A stretch of 64,000 nucleotides of DNA from Escherichia coli. Lineage in GTDB: Bacteria > Pseudomonadota > Gammaproteobacteria > Enterobacterales > Enterobacteriaceae. Shown here one piece after another: positions 1,187 through 18,203 of this stretch (its first letter is position 1; the number at the start of each line of letters is the position of its first letter). Location: assembly GCF_001677475.2 (NCBI RefSeq), contig NZ_CP015229.1. The stretch is one strand, 5' to 3'. A program made the position numbers and the translations under genes. Under the pieces are notes generated by a model. The model made no database searches. It worked only from the letters and a program-made list of their open reading frames with translations, and was not told where the DNA came from.

Positions 1187-1322
1187 AATTTCTTACCGTT
1201 ATGGTTAACTAAGTAAACAGTTTTCATTTAAAAATGCCGATGACGAAAGTGGTAGTATCTTTCCTTGATTCTCCATGAATCTCACACCGCCAGAGGTCTC
1301 AGGCAACTGGCGGCTTTTTTTA

Positions 1323-3263
1323 TCATGCCGCGGCATCCGCGTTGTTCACTTCCACCGCAATGCTGTCAATCAGCACCGGGTAAGTCGCATTCCTGGTAAT
1401 GTCTGTCACATGCATCTTATCCGCCGCAAAGGCACTGACCGGTGACTGCGTCAGCGTGAACGGTGTACCATCCTGACCATCAATAACCGGCGTTACCTGA
1501 AGGCTGTTATTCCCGGCAAAGCGGAAAGCCAGCGTATGCCATTCATTATCAAATGCGCCAAGGGTTCCCAGTTTCTGGTTATTTGTCGCCACTTTCGCAT
1601 TGTGGTACATCACATTCAGGTCTTTTGCGTCTGTCTGGATGTAAAACGATGCCAGCAGATTATTCCCTGCATCCCCTGTCAGGGTGACACCCTGTGGCAG
1701 AGAGGAAACCGGCCAGTAAAGCGCCATGACATACTGGTTTGCCACCAGTTCACCGGATGCCTTAAAGCGGCAACTGATTAAACCTCCATTTTTCAGCAGT
1801 TCAGCGCCAGTACCGGCATCATGCTCCAGATGCCATGACCCTTTACCTGTCTCCTTGCTCAGCTTCATCGCGGTTCCACCTGTTGCACCCTCATCAGCAA
1901 CAATTTCCGCTTTACCTCCGCCAGCACTCCAGCCCTGTTCGGTCAGCTTCCCTTCAGACTCACTGGCCCGGTAAGACAGCAGTGTTGTGGTGCTTACCGC
2001 TTCACTTTCTGACGGTGACGGCGTCGGTGCGCCAGTTTCAGAAGATGGAACATCGACTTTTACTGTGGTTCTCCCGGCATGAACCAGAATCGCCGTTGCC
2101 AGACGGTCGGAAATAATCCCACGGCGTGCCCAGGAGCTGAAATGGCTCGCCCTGTCCTGTGACGTCCAGGTGGCTGAGCTGTCACGCCATTTCGAACCGT
2201 AATAACCGATACCCGGAATGTCCGGGTCTTCTTCCGGTTTGTTCGTCGGCACATTCACCCCGTTCTCATCGGTCATGAACGGTACGAAATGGATATTCTT
2301 TTCCGTTTTGTTTTTATAGCTGCCGTACACCATCTGGTAGGTGGATTCGTTCTTCTGCTTCCAGAAATACGTCGTGTCCCCACATATCCAGGGAACACCG
2401 CCAGCAGAGCCACCGACGCACTGGCCAGCCATATCCGCCAGGTCTGCACGGAATTTATCAACCAGCGCACCAAACTGTGCTGCGTGATTTGCCGGCGTAC
2501 CGCCAAAATCAAATTCCCCCTGCATCCACACCACGGCAAACAGCACATTTTTCGGGTTCTTCTTCAGTGCTGCTTTTGTTCGACCTATAAGGTCCTTATA
2601 CAGGGGCTTGTCCACCCCCCAGCGCACTGAATTCTCCGAGGCACCGGTCGCGTCACTGTATGTGCCATCAGCTCCGGTGGTGAACGCTGAACCACCACGA
2701 CAGCACGGAACCAGCAGAATACCCGCATTCGCCGGTATAAACGGCAGCAGTTTTTTGGCGATATGCAGCCCCTGCCCCACGGTTCCGTACTGCCCCTTTG
2801 ACAGGTCCGCTTTCGGATGGTTAAGACGGCTCATGTCCTGCACATCATGCAGACAATGGTCCGCCGGAATGATGTCGTTATATTTACAGGCGACACCGCC
2901 CGGTGTCACCGTACTGCGACGCGCCAGCTGCTTAATACGCGGCTCCGGACGGTCATATGTCTCCGGTAGCGGAAGACCTTCACCGTATGACATACCATTG
3001 GACTGACCGGCAAGCGCAATCACATAGTAATATTCTGGCGCAACAGAAGGATTCGTTGAGGTCGTCGGACGGTTGCCTGGCTCCTCAGGTGATGAGATGC
3101 TTCCCTCGCTCACAACTGGCTGGATGAATTCCGCACCATAACCAGCTGTCGAAATCAGCGCACTACCATAAGGCTGCCACCCTTCCTTCAGTTTTTGAGT
3201 TATTCGTTCCGCAAGATCGGACGGCGATACCGCCCTGACCACGTCATAGTGTTTAAATGCCAT
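1323..3263 (-). CDS. nanS-p: Prophage sialate O-acetylesterase-like protein (NanS-p family)
   Basis: 646-aa ORF starting MAFKHYDVVRAVSPSDLAERITQKLKEGWQPYG (DUF1737-like N-terminus) followed by esterase-like core; located between tRNAs and lysis genes as in Stx-type prophages. Confidence 0.7.
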   Translation of the reverse strand: MAFKHYDVVRAVSPSDLAERITQKLKEGWQPYGSALISTAGYGAEFIQPVVSEGSISSPEEPGNRPTTSTNPSVAPEYYYVIALAGQSNGMSYGEGLPLPETYDRPEPRIKQLARRSTVTPGGVACKYNDIIPADHCLHDVQDMSRLNHPKADLSKGQYGTVGQGLHIAKKLLPFIPANAGILLVPCCRGGSAFTTGADGTYSDATGASENSVRWGVDKPLYKDLIGRTKAALKKNPKNVLFAVVWMQGEFDFGGTPANHAAQFGALVDKFRADLADMAGQCVGGSAGGVPWICGDTTYFWKQKNESTYQMVYGSYKNKTEKNIHFVPFMTDENGVNVPTNKPEEDPDIPGIGYYGSKWRDSSATWTSQDRASHFSSWARRGIISDRLATAILVHAGRTTVKVDVPSSETGAPTPSPSESEAVSTTTLLSYRASESEGKLTEQGWSAGGGKAEIVADEGATGGTAMKLSKETGKGSWHLEHDAGTGAELLKNGGLISCRFKASGELVANQYVMALYWPVSSLPQGVTLTGDAGNNLLASFYIQTDAKDLNVMYHNAKVATNNQKLGTLGAFDNEWHTLAFRFAGNNSLQVTPVIDGQDGTPFTLTQSPVSAFAADKMHVTDITRNATYPVLIDSIAVEVNNADAAA

Positions 3264-3480
3264 GAATCCTCCCGGCCGGGATAATGTACTGAATAAGATA
3301 AGGAGTGAGCGGAAGTCCCGAAACACAAGGGAAAAAGACAACCACCCGCAAAAAAGAAATACACTCCTCACAGTTGCGCAGGGTGATTACTGTAAGGTAT
3401 TATTCGCAGCGTTAATTAATTGTTCATATTGCTTTTCTTCTTGCCAACCGCTCTTCCCGGGGGCGGCTTTTTTTGCATGT

Positions 3481-3504
3481 AAAAGGCCCCTGCTATGAGG
3501 GGCC
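3481..3504 (-). terminator. Putative intrinsic terminator upstream of esterase gene
   Basis: Minus-strand hairpin GGCCCCT-catagc-AGGGGCC followed by TTTT. Confidence 0.4.
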
Positions 3505-3752
3505 CTAGTATATGCCTAATCTCTGTATACTGCATGGTGCCGGGTGCCTCCCGGTGAGTTCGGCCTGGTGCCACCAAACCCGCGTATTCTCGCTTACGAT
3601 CATCAAAGAGATCATACCATTCACCAGTCGCCCCTCCGCACAGGGGGATTCACCATGCCAGTTTCTTTTAACAAACTCCCCGCAAATCAGACAACTGTCA
3701 ACTGTCTGAATTGTGAGACATTTAAAATTTTCGGGGCATGACTGATACCCGG

Positions 3753-3917
3753 CTAACTACCTGGCATGCCCTTTTTCACCAAAGGGAAAAGCACCACCAC
3801 AATACCAACCACCAGCACTCCATCCGCCAGCACCGACATGACCCTGCTGGTGAAATCCACCATCACCACCAGAAACAGCAGGAGTGCCACAGCAGCCAGA
3901 CGCAGTTTTAATGTCAC
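3753..3917 (-). CDS. Small hydrophobic protein (~54 aa), start overlapping upstream stop
   Basis: GTG start overlaps the TGA of the TerB-like gene; product VTLKLRLAAVALLLFLVVMVDF...GIVVVLFPLVKKG is strongly hydrophobic; not in ORF track (short). Confidence 0.3.
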   Translation of the reverse strand: MTLKLRLAAVALLLFLVVMVDFTSRVMSVLADGVLVVGIVVVLFPLVKKGMPGS

Positions 3918-4345
3918 AGGTGGTTCTCCAGTCGCAGGCCAAGAACACCGGCGATCTCTTCCAGAACCTTACGCTCTTCCGGCTCAATTTCACCATCCGC
4001 TTCAGCAATGGCCACCGCCACATCCAGCACATCTTCCGCTTCATGCGTATCGTGTTTTACATCTTCAATTTCACGCAACGCCGCTCGACGACCAATTTTA
4101 AAGTTGGTGTCAAGCTGACCTGTGATCGTGGCACTGATGGCATTAATTTCTGACGTAAACGCGGACAACGCAGGCTGGTTACGTAATACCTGTTCGATCT
4201 TCGCTTTCTCTGAAGCCTCACATTCACCATCTGCATAGGCCACCAGATAGGCAGCATTAATAACCGCCTGTGCCAGATCACGTTTCTCAAACTTTTTAAT
4301 TTCCGCTGCCGCTCTGCGGGTTTTCTTTTTGAAAATACCAAACAT
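3914..4345 (-). CDS. TerB-family (tellurite-resistance TerB-like) protein
   Basis: 143-aa ORF with paired ADGE(C/I)E-type motifs (AYADGECEASEKAKIE; AEADGEIEPEERKVLEEIAG) typical of TerB domain. Confidence 0.6.
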   Translation of the reverse strand: MFGIFKKKTRRAAAEIKKFEKRDLAQAVINAAYLVAYADGECEASEKAKIEQVLRNQPALSAFTSEINAISATITGQLDTNFKIGRRAALREIEDVKHDTHEAEDVLDVAVAIAEADGEIEPEERKVLEEIAGVLGLRLENHL

Positions 4346-4514
4346 CGTGACGTTCCTTTAGGTGGGTGAGCCAACGCCCGGGAGCGATCTGCCCACAGAG
4401 AAAGTCACACTGACCACTCCGTAAGCTCACCCCCGAAAGGCTCTGTGGTTGATATGCGCCGGGCGTGGCGCGGAGACAAAAAAGGCCCGCAAAAGCGAGC
4501 CTGGTAAATAAATA

Positions 4515-4591
4515 TGGCGCGTTGTACTAGATTCGAACCAGTGACCGATTGCTTAGAAGGCAATTGCTCTGTCCGGCTGAGCTAACAACGC
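4515..4591 (-). tRNA. argO: tRNA-Arg (anticodon UCU)
   Basis: 77-nt cloverleaf on minus strand: acceptor GCGTTGT/ACAACGC, anticodon loop CU-UCU-AA, TTCGAAT T-loop, encoded CCA. Confidence 0.8.
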
Positions 4592-4604
4592 AGTGTACAG
4601 ATAA

Positions 4605-4681
4605 TGGACCGCCATCGAGGACTCGAACCCCGCGCAACCAGCTTCGAAGGCTGGCGCTCTATCCCGATGAGCTAATGGCGG
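4605..4681 (-). tRNA. argN: tRNA-Arg (anticodon UCG)
   Basis: 77-nt cloverleaf on minus strand: anticodon stem CCAGC/GCTGG, loop CU-UCG-AA, TTCGAGT T-loop, encoded CCA; acceptor stem begins with C (unusual). Confidence 0.7.
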
Positions 4682-4688
4682 TAGGTGA

Positions 4689-4764
4689 TGGTGGCCCTTG
4701 CTGGATTTGAACCAGCGACCTGGCGATTATGAGTCGCTCGCTCTCACCACTGAGCTAAAGGGCC
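4689..4764 (-). tRNA. ileZ: tRNA-Ile2 type (anticodon CAU)
   Basis: 76-nt cloverleaf GGCCCTTTAGCTCAGTGG...anticodon loop CU-CAU-AA...GGGCCACCA; CAU anticodon could also be Met, Ile2 inferred from Stx-phage ileZ-argN-argO arrangement. Confidence 0.7.
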
Positions 4765-8154: not shown

Positions 8155-8556
8155 TCATTCATACCTCCTGTCAGTAAATCTGATCCCCTGCTCCACAGCC
8201 CAGGAAGTTGTGTACTCAATCAGGCTTGCCATACGCTTCACGCTCATCTGCGCACTGCTTTCGCGGATATTGACGTATTCACCTTCAAGACCTGGCAAAA
8301 CATCAGCTTCCTGTTTTGTCGCCACGGCATGACCGCTGATTAACAAAACTTTCCACTGTTCTGGTTTTAGCCATCTGCCGCACCACTGAACCTGTCGGGA
8401 GATATCAGCGACCATCGCGTGAAATTTGGCATTTTGAGATAATTTTCTTGTTGGTTTGCGGATGTCTATGATGAATTTATCGGGGGCGGATTTTACTGCG
8501 TTTAATGCGTTAGCTCTGACGGATTCATTAATCAGATGATACCTTTGTCTTTCCAT
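8155..8556 (-). CDS. ninB: NinB recombination protein
   Basis: [30 protein letters not shown] matches recalled lambda NinB core (LDQNRKLWACLGDVSRQVEWHGRWL). Confidence 0.75.
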
Positions 8557-9238
8557 TAGATAGCGCCTCTTCTATGGTTTTTCCTCTCATTAGCCTTACT
8601 GTAATCGTTGAGTAGGGTATGCCTGTTTCTTCACTCCATTCTTTAATGGTCATTGTTTTCCCGTACGCTGTAAGATTTCGCGTTCTTCTGGTGTTGAGCT
8701 TTTGCTCTCGGTCAGTAGCCCATCGGCAATTCTCTTTGCAGTAATCACCATTGACATCAATACGATCAATGCTGCATCCGTCAGGCCTCTCTCCCATGTC
8801 TTCCAGGAAAAGATCAAATGAATTCCACCGTTCACAAACGCGAATCCCCCTCCCTCCATAGTTTTTGTATCCTGGTGTTTCGGGGTTATTGCATCTAGAT
8901 TTCATTTGGGCCCATGAAGAATATGCGCCCTTCCTTTTCCTGGGTTTTCCGTTATTTGCACATCTCAATGCTGCCGATTTCTTTACAAGACATCCGCATG
9001 ATTTAGTTCTACCTGTTGTCAGGGCCGAACGATAAATAAGTTTTTCCTTTCCACAATCACACCGACAAACCCATCGGCTTTCTCCAACTTTACCTCTTGG
9101 GTTTATATATGGATCTCCTTTTCGTAATACCACCAGGAGTCCGTATCTGTTGCCAATTTCAACCATATAGTAATTCCTTGCGCTTGTAGTCAGTAATGCG
9201 GATGGTGACTGGCTTGTCTTTATCGAGAGTTGTTGCAA
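8528..9238 (-). CDS. Cys-rich phage protein, possible HNH-type nuclease/DNA-binding protein
   Basis: CRCDCGK...CGC Zn motif and GYKNYGGRGIRVCERW...CRWAT segment; family assignment is from memory only. Confidence 0.4.
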   Translation of the reverse strand: MQQLSIKTSQSPSALLTTSARNYYMVEIGNRYGLLVVLRKGDPYINPRGKVGESRWVCRCDCGKEKLIYRSALTTGRTKSCGCLVKKSAALRCANNGKPRKRKGAYSSWAQMKSRCNNPETPGYKNYGGRGIRVCERWNSFDLFLEDMGERPDGCSIDRIDVNGDYCKENCRWATDREQKLNTRRTRNLTAYGKTMTIKEWSEETGIPYSTITVRLMRGKTIEEALSNGKTKVSSD

Positions 9239-9323
9239 GGATGGCGTTAATGGCGAATTGTTGCTGCTGCTTACTTCGGAGGAAGATAGTCTGGTTCATT
9301 ATTCCCTCTCATTGGATTTTCCC

Positions 9324-9348
9324 AACAAAAAAGGAGCCGAAGCTCCTT
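9324..9348 (-). terminator. Intrinsic terminator after Bro-N antirepressor gene
   Basis: Minus-strand hairpin AAGGAGC-ttcg-GCTCCTT followed by TTTTTTG. Confidence 0.4.
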
Positions 9349-9353
9349 TAGTT

Positions 9354-9986
9354 TCAGAATTCAAATTGTCTTGCCCGTAGTTGCGCCAGCATGCTTCTGG
9401 CCCTATGCACCATATAGTTGGCGGGATCAAGTTTTGCTGCTTCGCGGAGCAATGTGTCGCGAGTCCGGTTGGTTATATGACGAGTCTCGTAGGCCAGATC
9501 AAACAGTTTCCCGTAGTAATCAGAGTTCAGTTCTCTCATGACGGGGTATAGCTGTTTACTGAGTTGTTGTGCTTTTTCCATCCAGAGTTGAACGTAGCAG
9601 AGCAGGATGATGTCTTCTGCTGTGAATTGCGGCTGAATATGAGGTTGTGGCGGTATAGCGCTTTTTTCAGCTTCACGGTCCAGAATATCCAATACCCAGC
9701 GACGAAACTCTTTTGCTATTGGAGTTCGAGCAAACATCGCTATTAGGTGAGCGCCGCGTAATGAGAAGATGCGAGTCTCTTGCTTGTCCCCTTTAGGATC
9801 GGTCAATTTGACCGAGGCTGTCATACCGTTTGTGAATTCATCTGCGTGACGGGCATAGATGCGTGTTACCGAGCTTTGATCTGCATATTGTAACGCGCTG
9901 GCTATTTGGGGGGCAGACAACCACAGTAGACCATCTCGTTGAACGGTCTGGAATTGAACATTGTGGAATACAAGTTGAGTGCTCAT
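9354..9986 (-). CDS. Antirepressor-like protein, Bro-N-type N-terminal domain
   Basis: 210-aa ORF; C-terminal ~100 aa homologous to the adjacent paralog (QPQFTAEDIILLCYVQLWMEKAQ...LRARQFEF). Confidence 0.55.
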   Translation of the reverse strand: MSTQLVFHNVQFQTVQRDGLLWLSAPQIASALQYADQSSVTRIYARHADEFTNGMTASVKLTDPKGDKQETRIFSLRGAHLIAMFARTPIAKEFRRWVLDILDREAEKSAIPPQPHIQPQFTAEDIILLCYVQLWMEKAQQLSKQLYPVMRELNSDYYGKLFDLAYETRHITNRTRDTLLREAAKLDPANYMVHRARSMLAQLRARQFEF

Positions 9987-10240
9987 AGTTTTATGTCCTT
10001 TCGATTCGTTCAGATCACCCCGTGTTCAGCAGGGCGGTCGGGTACTTGAACACCGTCGAAAGTTCGGCCCGCATCCTTAGCCTTGCGGCTGTTTTTCGGT
10101 ATACGCGCTACCCGACCATATCTGAAAAATGGACATAAAAAATCCGCATGACTGACGGGCGCGGTTTCCGCTTTCGAAGGTGTGTTCAGCACCATGGAGC
10201 GGAATATATCCCCGCTAATGCGGATTTGTCAAATCTGGCC

Positions 10241-10906
10241 TTAAAACTCGAATTGTCTTGCCCGCAGGCTTTTCAGCATTGGTCTGGCCCGCTGGATAAC
10301 GAAACTTGACTGGTCAAGCCGTGCCGCCTCCCGCAGTAGCGCGTCTCTGTTCTTCGTCACCATGTAGATGGTTTCAAACGCAATGTCATACAGCTTGTTC
10401 GTGTATGAGGAGTTCAGCTCTTTCATAATGGGATACAGGTGTTTGCTGATGTTCTGGGCTTTTTCCATCCAGAGCTGCATGTAGCAAAGGAGGATGATTT
10501 CCTCGGCTGTGAATTGTGGCTGAATCTGCGACTGCTGTTCGGTTTGTATTGTTTTTCCCAGGCTGAAATAGCAGTCTTCCAGTTTTTCGAATACTTCCCA
10601 CGCTCGATCGGTTTCGAGCATTTTTGCATGACGGGCTGCGCCGCGTTCTGTCCAGAGGATGAGGTGCTTTGTACGCGGTGCAACTAAGTTACTTTGAGTA
10701 ACCTTGTTCTTAAATTCCCGCAATTCAGCCCCTTCCAATTTGAAGTAGTGCTTCCCGCAAACAAAACGCTCGGCATTGCGCGTATAGTTCACTTTGATGT
10801 TATTAGTTTCGGTGCCATAAAGTTGTGCCAAAAGCTCGGTGGTAATAACAAGAATCTGGTTATGGGTAATCGGGGAGATGGTTTCAACAGAGATTTGAGT
10901 TGTCAT
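10241..10906 (-). CDS. Antirepressor-like protein, ORF6N-type N-terminal domain
   Basis: N-terminus LAQLYGTETNNIKVNYTRNAERF...KHLILWTERGAARHAKML resembles ORF6N; C-terminus shared with 9354-9986 gene. Confidence 0.55.
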   Translation of the reverse strand: MTTQISVETISPITHNQILVITTELLAQLYGTETNNIKVNYTRNAERFVCGKHYFKLEGAELREFKNKVTQSNLVAPRTKHLILWTERGAARHAKMLETDRAWEVFEKLEDCYFSLGKTIQTEQQSQIQPQFTAEEIILLCYMQLWMEKAQNISKHLYPIMKELNSSYTNKLYDIAFETIYMVTKNRDALLREAARLDQSSFVIQRARPMLKSLRARQFEF

Positions 10907-11064
10907 AATGACGCCCTCTAGTGGTTTCTAAACTATCACCACCGTAAGGTTCCAATCATCGGGTGGTGAGACGCACAGGGTTGGAACTACCGGGAAACCG
11001 ACCGGCGAGCTTTTCAGCTCCCCCATGCGCCCCACCATAATTCAGATGTGCGCGTGCATACGAC

Positions 11065-11089
11065 AATAAAAAACACGCTCGCGGCGTGT
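11065..11089 (-). terminator. Intrinsic terminator upstream of antirepressor gene
   Basis: Minus-strand hairpin ACACGC-cgcga-GCGTGT followed by TTTTTATT. Confidence 0.4.
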
Positions 11090-11173
11090 GTTTGTCGCGG
11101 TCTCTATCCGGGGTTCCAATCCCGACGGCCAACTCGACCGTGCGAAGAATATAATCCCGGATAAGTAATTACG

Positions 11174-11257
11174 TCAACCCCAGCGGCAAATCGAATACTC
11201 CACCAGCGCCACCGCCAGTGCAATTCCTGCCGTTGTGAACGCCTCAGGCCAGGTCAT
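11174..11257 (-). CDS. 27-aa hydrophobic peptide, start overlapping upstream stop
   Basis: ATG overlaps TGA of 11254-11577 gene (ATGA); product MTWPEAFTTAGIALAVALVEYSICRWG; not in ORF track. Confidence 0.25.
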   Translation of the reverse strand: MTWPEAFTTAGIALAVALVEYSICRWG

Positions 11258-11577
11258 CGTAAAACATCCTCCACGCTTATAAGTCCGTTTCGCTCCAGAT
11301 AGTCCATCGCTTTATCCGGTAATTTGCAGCCCGGTTTCGCTTTCCTCAGTTGCCAGGCTAACTGCTTTACCAGCATGGTTAACTCGTCGACCAGACGCTG
11401 ATATCCCACTGGTTTGTATTCATGCAATTTACCAGCTGGCTCTGCTACCAGCGATGCCAGTGCAATTTTGAATAACTCACCCTCTACCCGTGCCATCTCT
11501 GAATTAGGGTGGCATTTCGCAATCGCTATTTTTAATTTAGCTTCTTCGATTAATTGCTCTTTTGTTAATTCAGTCAT
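11254..11577 (-). CDS. Hypothetical phage protein (107 aa)
   Basis: Clean ORF in nin-like region. Confidence 0.5.
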   Translation of the reverse strand: MTELTKEQLIEEAKLKIAIAKCHPNSEMARVEGELFKIALASLVAEPAGKLHEYKPVGYQRLVDELTMLVKQLAWQLRKAKPGCKLPDKAMDYLERNGLISVEDVLR

Positions 11578-17360: not shown

Positions 17361-17440
17361 TAATTTAGTTAACTTCGAGTTAATGTTAACTATTAGCTGA
17401 CAGTTATGTCAACTATGTTTGATAATTAACGTATGGTTAA
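17361..17440. promoter_or_regulatory. Divergent cro/cI promoter-operator region (OR)
   Basis: Two perfect TTAAC-N5-GTTAA palindromes (17369-17383, 17426-17440); rc TTGACA at 17407-17412 for cro; CTGACA-18bp-GATAAT ending 7 nt before cI ATG. Confidence 0.5.
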
Positions 17441-18203
17441 AAAAGATGAACTAAAAGAAGCGTTCTCAAAGAGACTACTACAGGCATTATTAGATGCAGG
17501 TGTGGGCGGACGCGGTCAGGCTAAGCGGATTCAGAATGCAATGAAACTGCGAGGCATTGATATCTCTGAACCGGGGATCTGGAAATGGCTTAATTCTGCA
17601 TCAATTCCAGAAAAAACAAGTATTTTGGCACTTAGTGACTGGCTTTCCGTGAGGCCGGAGTGGTTGGAGTATGGCAGTAACGAGCCATCCGTAAAACAGC
17701 GACCTTCAATTCCAAACGAATCAGAATGGGGTTCCCTTGAAACTTGGGACAGAAATACACCACTACGAGATGATGAAGTTGAGGTGCCATATCTGAAAGA
17801 CATTGAGTTTGCATGCGGTGACGGAAGAGTTCATTGCGAAGATCATAATGGTTTTAAATTACGCTTCTCAAAAGCAACCCTGCGCCGTGTCGGAGCTAAC
17901 AGTGATGGTTCTGGTGTGCTTTGTTTTCCGGCTACTGGTGATAGCATGGAGCCCGTGATACCAGATGGAACAACAATCGCAGTAGACACAAACAACAAAC
18001 GTATTGTTGACGGCAAACTCTACGCCATCGCACAGCCTGGTGTCGGTGATGAAAAACTGAAGCGTATAAAACTATTGTACAGACGCCCCGGTGGAAAACT
18101 AATCATACGCAGTTATAACAGTGAAGAGTACCCTGACGAAGAAGCAGATACTCAAAGCGTGGAGATTATCGGAAAAGTTTTCTGGTATTCAGTTCTGCTT
18201 TAG
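17433..18203 (+). CDS. cI: CI-type prophage repressor (HTH N-terminus, S24 LexA-like C-terminus)
   Basis: 256-aa ORF with GDSMEP active-site motif and K-containing LexA-like C-terminal domain. Confidence 0.85.
   Translation: MVKKDELKEAFSKRLLQALLDAGVGGRGQAKRIQNAMKLRGIDISEPGIWKWLNSASIPEKTSILALSDWLSVRPEWLEYGSNEPSVKQRPSIPNESEWGSLETWDRNTPLRDDEVEVPYLKDIEFACGDGRVHCEDHNGFKLRFSKATLRRVGANSDGSGVLCFPATGDSMEPVIPDGTTIAVDTNNKRIVDGKLYAIAQPGVGDEKLKRIKLLYRRPGGKLIIRSYNSEEYPDEEADTQSVEIIGKVFWYSVLL

Follow-up and report, generated by a model that had tools for sequence, protein, structure and literature searches.

Two co-oriented antirepressor-like gene cassettes in an Escherichia coli lambdoid prophage, each probably locked by its own c4-type antisense RNA

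The 64,000-nucleotide stretch of Escherichia coli DNA analysed here (RefSeq assembly GCF_001677475.2, contig NZ_CP015229.1; hereafter the window) carries two adjacent antirepressor-like genes, antA and antB, whose leaders resemble several described regulatory systems. In phages P1 and P7 the immI operon, reportedly described by Citron and Schuster in 1990, comprises, in order, the c4 antisense RNA, icd and ant. Processing of the ant leader yields the c4 RNA, whose a′ and b′ elements pair with the a2/b2 boxes at the ribosome-binding site, with a1/b1 lying upstream (PMC12197685). In Gifsy-1, transcription reads through the terminator of the IsrK RNA and the long transcript is untranslated; IsrK supplied in trans raises translation of the antirepressor gene anrP 140-fold, anrP expression requires translation of the 45-codon orf45, and AnrP expression induces the prophage, a processed RNA of ~80 nt being likened by the authors to the P4 CI RNA (Hershko-Shalev et al. 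2016, PMC4825925). In APSE phages of Hamiltonella (PMC7313666) and the ‘Bro zone’ of phage-inducible chromosomal island (PICI) satellites (PMC10111431), isrK and C4 RNAs with annotated a′ and b′ regions stand ahead of a BRO gene, and sRNA-Xcc1 stands ahead of an ORF6N gene. For the PICI satellites, a domain-swapping Bro-N network was described together with these C4/isrK ‘immunity RNAs’ (PMC10111431).

We propose that antA and antB form two independent, co-oriented cassettes, each probably encoding an antirepressor-like regulator of the Bro-N network that is locked at translation by its own c4-type antisense RNA. In the open reading frame (ORF) listing both genes are intact on the minus strand, as are all features of the two cassettes given below: antA lies at 9354..9986 (210 aa, ATG at 9986) and antB at 10241..10906 (221 aa, ATG at 10906). 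This bears out the gene pair reported in an earlier note made from the letters of this DNA alone. That note missed the central regulators of the locus, which to judge from the sequence are two c4-type antisense RNAs. An Rfam scan at curated thresholds placed all three leader RNA matches on the coding strand, and the two structured RNAs are alike in having a long closing stem, two internal hairpins, a single-stranded junction and a C-rich 3′ tail. As each leader is preceded by a good sigma-70-like promoter of its own, antA and antB are separate transcription units with long structured leaders.

Cassette B, that of antB, begins with a promoter at 11148..11177 (TTGACG-18-TATATT, 10/12 matches in a consensus scan) that ends 7 nt ahead of the start of an isrK match and is conserved in the homologous leaders of Gifsy-1, 1717, PA28, Meifeng and APSE-7. 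The isrK-type leader RNA lies at 11068..11141 (Rfam isrK 54.9 bits against a gathering score of 50), and the c4-a1b1 model also matches weakly at 11154..11105 (Rfam 23.5 bits). This leader contains the upstream junction target UUGGAAC, in the isrK hairpin loop (11119..11113), and the upstream loop target GAGACCG (11104..11098), and a strong intrinsic terminator located by a terminator scan (hairpin 11089..11073 plus U-run). A full-length C4-family antisense RNA follows at 10959..11042 (Rfam C4 71 bits, gathering score 45), with the hairpin-2 loop CGGUUUC at 11000..10994 and the junction GUUCCAA at 10987..10981; its minimum free energy fold recovers the family structure. The upstream loop target pairs with CGGUUUC through one G.U pair. 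Beyond the RNA lie the downstream junction target UUGGAAC (10955..10949) and the downstream loop target GAAACC (10928..10923), which ends 4 nt 5′ of the antB Shine-Dalgarno (SD) sequence AGAGGG (10919..10914), inside a 30S footprint. The downstream target positions are homologous to those of six other C4-type cassettes, in which the sequences co-vary.

The promoter of cassette A, at 10203..10232 (TTGACA-18-TATATT, 11/12 consensus matches), begins 9 nt past the antB stop codon and is conserved in the homologous leaders of four compared loci (L001, L010, L011 and L012). The leader itself (10137..10188), a positional analogue of IsrK, carries the upstream junction target UGAACAC (10188..10182) and the upstream loop target UCGAAAG (10177..10171), just after which comes a small GCGG-AAA-CCGC hairpin. 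It is closed by a weak hairpin followed by U6 (~10164..10137); the U-run hairpin persists in loci L002 and L012, where its stem is better than here. The structured RNA of this cassette belongs to the sRNA-Xcc1 family (10028..10117, full length, Rfam 67.5 bits, gathering score 53), and it went undetected by the Rfam C4 model even at E ≤ 1. It has a hairpin-2 loop CUUUCGA (10062..10056) and a junction GUGUUCA (10053..10047), and is followed by the downstream junction target UGAACAC (10028..10022) and the downstream loop target UCGAAAG (10004..9998). The latter overlaps the antA SD sequence AAGGA (10000..9996), which ends 9 nt ahead of the ATG. The cassette is closed by a terminator at 9322..9349 (hairpin 9349..9330) with an 8-bp stem and a UUCG loop followed by U6 (−12.1 kcal/mol). 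The earlier note had each gene bracketed by its own terminator, which is true by position, but the two upstream elements sit in the 5′ leaders, past the promoters, and are leader attenuators.

We refer to the hairpin-2 loop as b′ and to the junction as a′; the APSE-7 GenBank record reverses these labels. In both cassettes, both recognition elements have exact 6–7-nt complements in both flanks, one cassette B pairing including the G.U pair mentioned above. Complements in both flanks arose by chance in 1/5000 dinucleotide shuffles for cassette A and 10/5000 for cassette B. RNAduplex energies gave no discrimination between cognate and non-cognate pairs because stem nucleotides were included, and counts of exact complements were used instead.

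The RNAs were then located by Rfam in cassettes from phiSTEC1589, E. coli STEC17-183, Stx2a_WGPS6, phi330, 1717, PA28, Gifsy-1, Hafnia phage Meifeng, APSE-7, P13374, Nil2 and F451. Across 7 C4-type and 5 Xcc1-type specificities, the loop and the junction vary together with both target pairs, a matching box lying in both flanks. Among the C4-type RNAs, window B combines the loop CGGUUUC with the junction GUUCCAA, whereas 1717, WGPS6 and phi330 combine the same loop with ACGCCAA. The junction ACGCCAA also occurs with the loop CGGUGA in Gifsy-1 and with CCUUUUUC in PA28, and the remaining specificities are those of Meifeng (loop GGUAGA, junction UUGCAAA), APSE-7 (loop CCUUGUUAG, junction GUCUCAA) and P13374 (junction GUAGCAA). 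The junction of window B is unmatched among the other C4-type cassettes sampled. Among the Xcc1-type RNAs, window A and F451 have the loop CUUUCGA and junction GUGUUCA, phiSTEC1589 has CUUGUAU and GUGUUCA, STEC17-183 and WGPS6 have CUUUAG and UUCUGA, P13374 and Nil2 have CUACUUG and UUUUGA, and a second F451 cassette has the junction UUUCGAG.

The phiSTEC1589 locus is ~95% identical to that of the window, yet in the loop and in both targets of that loop UUCG has given way to UGUA (CUUGUAU / AUACAAG). Such three-way compensatory changes between 95%-identical loci indicate that selection on the lock is ongoing. When loops and junctions were compared with targets in a 12×12 matrix, every cognate entry had at least 2 common six-mers, and non-cognate entries were 0 unless one element was common to both, the exceptions being four isolated matches of one six-mer each. 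Between the two window cassettes the score was 0. Together, the co-variation and the matrix argue that the RNA–target relation is under selection and that the two window cassettes are orthogonal.

One candidate for cross-talk between the cassettes was rejected. The sequence GAAACCG in the cassette A leader (~10168..10162) exactly complements the cassette B loop CGGUUUC, and this match is probably coincidental: it is formed by an arm and the loop of the GCGG-AAA-CCGC hairpin, and the same hairpin recurs in F451, where the scan, which covered a 2.9-kb locus, gave no upstream C4 match. At the same site phiSTEC1589 carries GAAGCCG, which is still G.U-compatible.

Sequence and comparison show one layout in both cassettes: a constitutive-looking sigma-70 promoter, two boxes, a leaky terminator, a structured RNA of ~85 nt, the same boxes again and the start codon. 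By analogy with P1/P7 immI and Gifsy-1, the locks may work as follows. The structured RNA would be excised from read-through transcripts and pair with the downstream boxes, blocking ribosome binding so that little Ant protein is made. The upstream boxes would compete for the RNA, either in cis or in trans as a short terminated leader RNA of the IsrK type, and a rising level of these boxes would release translation. Since the box sequences of the two cassettes are unrelated, each RNA should act on its own gene only. The best-supported reading of the proteins, by homology only, is that AntA and AntB would help to derepress or induce the prophage that carries them or others in the same cell. From homology, the Bro-N or ORF6N head could act as a nucleic-acid or target-recognition module and the three-helix tail in protein interaction or oligomerisation. 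As the prophage repressor carries an S24 self-cleavage domain, AntA and AntB are likely auxiliary to the RecA route.

The window resembles P1/P7 immI in having a structured RNA of ~80 nt in the ant leader, on the same strand, with two elements facing two box pairs, the downstream pair at the ribosome-binding site. In P1/P7 differing boxes give differing specificities, which is the basis of heteroimmunity, and the boxes of the window cassettes likewise differ. The systems diverge in other respects: P1 is a plasmid prophage while the window cassettes lie in the nin region of a lambdoid prophage, the window Ant proteins combine Bro-N or ORF6N with P22_AR_C, unlike P1, and cassette A uses an RNA of the sRNA-Xcc1 family, which has c4 architecture but belongs to a different Rfam family from the P1-type C4. 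The P1/P7 RNA is cut from its precursor by RNase P, and its repression has been shown genetically; in P1 the primary repressor controls the promoter. P1 also has the icd leader ORF, translationally coupled to ant, whereas neither window cassette has an ORF between its RNA and its ant start. The conserved feature would thus be RNA pairing at or next to the SD sequence rather than leader-peptide coupling.

Gifsy-1 is closer, its isrK-orf45-anrP locus being the direct homologue of cassette B. Its leader is 80% identical to leader B and has the same order, namely c4-a1b1/isrK, terminator, C4 (equivalent to STnc1160, within ‘orf45’) and the ORF6N gene anrP. Its junction is ACGCCAA against GUUCCAA in window B, its loop CGGUGA against CGGUUUC, and its locus lies after Q whereas that of the window lies before ninB. 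An IsrK RNA with its own Rho-independent terminator, as in Gifsy-1, is present in cassette B; cassette A has a positional analogue only. We infer from the analogy that IsrK acts as an a1/b1 decoy titrating the C4-type RNA, which would fit the Gifsy-1 compensatory mutations. In Gifsy-1 (locus L004), a C4-family RNA at 1286..1369 (Rfam 69 bits) fills almost all of the published orf45. The orf45 frame is open for 46 codons in Gifsy-1 and for 4 in the window ahead of the antB ATG, where it has no start codon, and the Gifsy-1 orf45 stop overlaps the ant start (AUGA) while the window has no such overlapping ORF. Given the C4 RNA inside orf45 and the closed frame in the window, the conserved element appears to be the RNA and not the peptide.

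Among Shiga toxin (Stx) phages, 933W, 1717, Nil2 (antA-antB-roi), phi24B (ant) and phiSTEC1589-Stx1c carry related genes at the same position, in the nin region between the replication genes and ninB/Q. As in the window, genes of the Bro network stand in tandem there, and isrK/C4 or Xcc1 RNAs lie ahead of several of them. The combination of head, tail and RNA specificity varies from phage to phage, and the window adds an HNH gene between antA and ninB. P22 Ant shares the P22_AR_C domain with both window proteins, but its P22_AR_N head is not found in the window, and P22 ant is regulated by Mnt/Arc and a convergent sar RNA, unlike the leader-encoded c4-type RNA seen here. The papers on APSE and PICIs contain neither an analysis of Xcc1 as a c4 lock nor tandem orthogonal cassettes, and their hosts and elements differ from those of the window (PMC7313666, PMC10111431). 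LexA-controlled Gifsy antirepressors carry an SOS box at the promoter, which neither window promoter does; a search for the LexA box (CTGT-N8-ACAG, ≤ 1 mismatch) found no match within 9300–11300. It was reportedly Lemire et al., in 2011, who described antirepressors of this LexA-controlled Gifsy type.

Several observations weigh against two c4-type locks on antirepressor-like genes. The small coupling ORFs of P1 (icd) and Gifsy-1 (orf45) are absent in the window, and the exact release mechanism may therefore differ from theirs. Cassette B has a downstream loop target of just 6 nt and requires a G.U pair at the upstream one, and its SD sequence is not overlapped. The cassette A leader matched no Rfam family and its terminator hairpin is weak. 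Bro-N or ORF6N proteins with this tail are not known to bind repressors, and the predicted tail structure (see below) yields no functional clue. In phi24B, ant knockout delayed late-promoter firing after induction and left superinfection unaffected (PMC3064807), so that the consequence of losing Ant there was only a delay of induction. The earlier note had described a derepression or exclusion module. Derepression is plausible by homology, given that AnrP induces Gifsy-1 and that phi24B induction is delayed without Ant; exclusion is weakened, since the phi24B Ant deletion had no effect on superinfection.

A serious rival, if a less likely one, is that AntA and AntB are instead sequence-specific DNA-binding regulators of the Roi/Rha/CapR type acting on phage or host promoters, or disrupt host functions, and are locked since they are harmful if mistimed. 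The phiSTEC1589 homologue is annotated ‘Rha protein’, ant-like genes adjoin roi in 1717 and Nil2, and Xcc1-type locks elsewhere precede SymE-like toxins and pRha genes. Against this, the tail falls in the same family as the C-terminal domain of P22 Ant, a repressor-binding protein, and no operator-like target for AntA or AntB was identified here. Heads of the Bro-N network have been described as DNA-interactive, with one member (Vibrio PLE) being a repressor (PMC10111431), BRO proteins bind DNA (cited in PMC7313666) and the authors of the AnrP study proposed that AnrP activates transcription, while the same study found that AnrP expression induces Gifsy-1 (PMC4825925), which speaks for derepression.

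Two further explanations concern the pair as a unit. A superinfection-exclusion or anti-phage defence module, aborting or blocking incoming phages, is improbable. The nin region of lambdoid phages often holds accessory genes, and antB, by way of its ORF6N head, has modest matches (E 9e-12 to 1e-6) to PDC-S05, a candidate system in PADLOC, but the PADLOC matches span only this generic head domain, with antA reaching E 0.003. No partner effector is adjacent, the neighbours being the HNH endonuclease, NinB and small unknown ORFs, and the unchanged superinfection in phi24B without Ant points the same way (PMC3064807). We consider it likewise improbable that the pair is a decaying product of tandem duplication and recombination in which one or both copies lack a distinct present function. 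Related loci do contain truncated or pseudogenised copies (L002 4385..4696, L003 3121..3456 and F451_07), and head and tail alleles recombine (database proteins P0048 and P0049, below). In the window, however, both ORFs are intact and each cassette has a promoter, RNA, SD sequence and four target boxes in register; the compensatory three-way changes relative to phiSTEC1589 also argue for ongoing selection on the lock rather than decay.

The domain composition of the two proteins agrees with the Bro-N-like and ORF6N-like heads called in the earlier note, and Pfam adds a P22_AR_C tail to both. AntA has a Bro-N head at residues 12–101 (nt 9684..9953, Pfam E 6e-11) and a P22_AR_C tail at residues 118–182 (nt 9441..9635, PF10548 E 7e-7). 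AntB has an ORF6N head at residues 12–96 (nt 10619..10873, Pfam E 1e-20) and a P22_AR_C tail at residues 127–191 (nt 10334..10528, PF10548 E 5e-7). P22_AR_N is absent as a head in both. BLASTP between the two proteins gave E = 1e-47 with 42% identity over 192 aa, but paralogy is limited to the last 98 residues (nt 9357..9650 of antA and 10244..10537 of antB), where 63/98 residues (64%) and 190/294 nucleotides are identical. In sliding windows, identity peaks at 80–87% of residues over the ~40 codons past the junction and over the last 8 residues, and the N-terminal halves are at background. The C-terminal regions are thus homologous and contain the motifs quoted in the note (QPQFTAE[D/E]IILLCY[V/M]QLWMEKAQ and LRARQFEF), although its ‘near-identical’ was too strong.

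Both genes fall in PHROG ‘anti-repressor Ant’ families (antB against phrog_377, E 1e-79). The two heads may be distant homologues: both match the same profile region of phrog_2127, although a profile–profile comparison with hhalign (E 0.012, probability 3.7%), made with small alignments, is too weak for a homology claim. A sequence search of the PDB with both proteins returned no significant match. An AlphaFold2 model of AntB (predicted local distance difference test score, pLDDT, 79.9) has an alpha/beta head (1–119), a disordered linker (120–128) and a three-helix-bundle tail (134–219); structure searches with the tail model returned generic helical bundles only and no informative neighbours.

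The domain shuffling suggested by the earlier note is real, in that the P22_AR_C-type tail occurs with ORF6N, Bro-N and AntA/AntB heads. A search of representative proteins returned only 14 relatives of the tail, which makes the subfamily narrow at phmmer sensitivity, and 13/13 aligned relatives matched Pfam P22_AR_C. In Stx phages P32 and WGPS9 the common tail stands at 94% identity behind an AntA/AntB-type head. Conversely, the ORF6N head is joined to three different tails. Over ~118 residues the heads of AntB and Gifsy-1 AnrP share 63% identity, their tails being unrelated; as a whole, AntB shares ~45% identity with the 1717/933W-type Ant, which ends in a more distant P22_AR_C domain. The head of AntA shares 39% identity with the BRO protein of APSE-7, itself preceded by isrK and C4. 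Recombinants between the two window types exist in the database, with P0048 joining an antB-type head to an antA-type tail and P0049 being an antA-type protein with an antB-type junction segment. The leaders are exchanged too: those of Xcc1 type stand ahead of Bro-N, ORF6N and AntA genes, those of C4 type ahead of ORF6N and Bro-N genes.

These comparisons indicate free recombination among heads, tails and leaders, a pattern already known from the ‘Bro-N network’, a domain-swapping network that Iyer, Koonin and Aravind are said to have described in 2002. With swapping symmetric between heads and tails, there is no preference for the earlier proposal that the tail is the effector and the head the targeting part. 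Related Stx prophages contain arrays of up to three ant cassettes and truncated ant genes (L002 4385..4696, L003 3121..3456 and L012 1548..1835), some with their RNA leaders intact, which suggests turnover of the arrays by recombination. In two tail relatives, P22_AR_C is fused to the P22 tailspike head-binding domain (P0052) or to the ejection protein gp7 (P0057) in one case each; such fusions were probably left behind by deletions in the immI region of P22-like prophages.

We extended the analysis of sRNA-Xcc1 beyond this locus by scanning one genome per species for its conserved core, which gave 95 distinct elements from diverse Proteobacteria. At least 2 loop-to-junction six-mers were complemented in both flanks in 54% of these elements, compared with 2.6% of non-cognate pairings. 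In 51/91 cases the loop had its complement at −22..−3 relative to the next start codon, a placement seen for 6% of non-cognate loops. The genes downstream encode Bro-N (the largest group), pRha, AntA, SymE-like and XAC0095-family proteins. Xanthomonas copies with the loop GGCUGUGUGC and junction UUUCGAA had no match within the fixed flank windows.

The pattern makes it a reasonable, if still tentative, suggestion that sRNA-Xcc1-family RNAs are leader-encoded c4-type locks in which the loop masks the SD sequence of the next gene (Bro-N, ORF6N, AntA, pRha, SymE-like or XAC0095-like) and decoy targets lie upstream, and that prophages with matching boxes form immunity groups. Rfam keeps sRNA-Xcc1 outside the C4 clan, and the searchable literature treats it as a trans-acting virulence sRNA or as ‘divergently regulating’ symE, but a c4-like lock linked in cis seems to describe it better. 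The copy ahead of symE in Xanthomonas integrons is probably a translational lock of this cis-linked kind. The proposal of c4-like Xcc1 locks across Proteobacteria may be new, and a prior statement in papers outside the searched literature is possible. If it holds, cassettes with matching boxes in polylysogens would constitute RNA-level ‘immunity groups’, cross-repressing their antirepressors or cross-releasing them through IsrK-like decoys, and the two orthogonal window cassettes would serve as two distinct channels within it.

Tandem paralogs with shuffled domains are in themselves ordinary, being documented for Stx phages, Gifsy-1, APSE and PICIs. What is added here is the anatomy of two orthogonal c4-type RNA locks, their three-way co-variation and the non-conservation of orf45; the published Gifsy-1 orf45 should be re-read as largely a C4-family RNA. 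Antirepressor-like genes influence the ease with which Stx-type prophages switch to lytic growth, and hence toxin and phage release, and a sequence-specific lock on each ant gene allows simple predictions as to which members of a polylysogen can silence or trigger one another.

The surrounding 25 kb are a lambdoid, Stx-phage-like prophage transcribed leftward in window coordinates, in the order CI-like repressor, O and DnaC-like replication genes, small nin-region genes, DNA methyltransferase, the two ant cassettes, HNH endonuclease and ninB. The CI-like repressor (17433..18203, plus strand, 256 aa) has a Peptidase_S24 domain (E 5e-16), and its N-terminal 125 residues matched no helix-turn-helix family at the Pfam reporting threshold. 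The HNH gene (8528..9238, minus strand, 236 aa; phrog_374 E 1e-65) lies between antA and ninB (8155..8556), whereas in the otherwise collinear phiSTEC1589-Stx1c (L001) the BRO gene is followed directly by ninB; from this comparison the HNH gene looks like an inserted homing-type endonuclease. Past the Q region, as in Stx phages, are the STnc100 sRNA (181.9 bits) and three tRNA genes (3475..4764, minus strand). Between these and an ORF of 682 aa (1323..3371) there are short ORFs only, of ≤ 143 aa, and the prophage may therefore lack stx genes. The same tandem pair occurs at ~95% identity in phage phiSTEC1589-Stx1c, where its members are annotated ‘antirepressor protein’ and ‘Rha protein’. Among 5426 complete E. 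coli genomes, 16 carry the pair at ~95% identity and 901 have partial matches.

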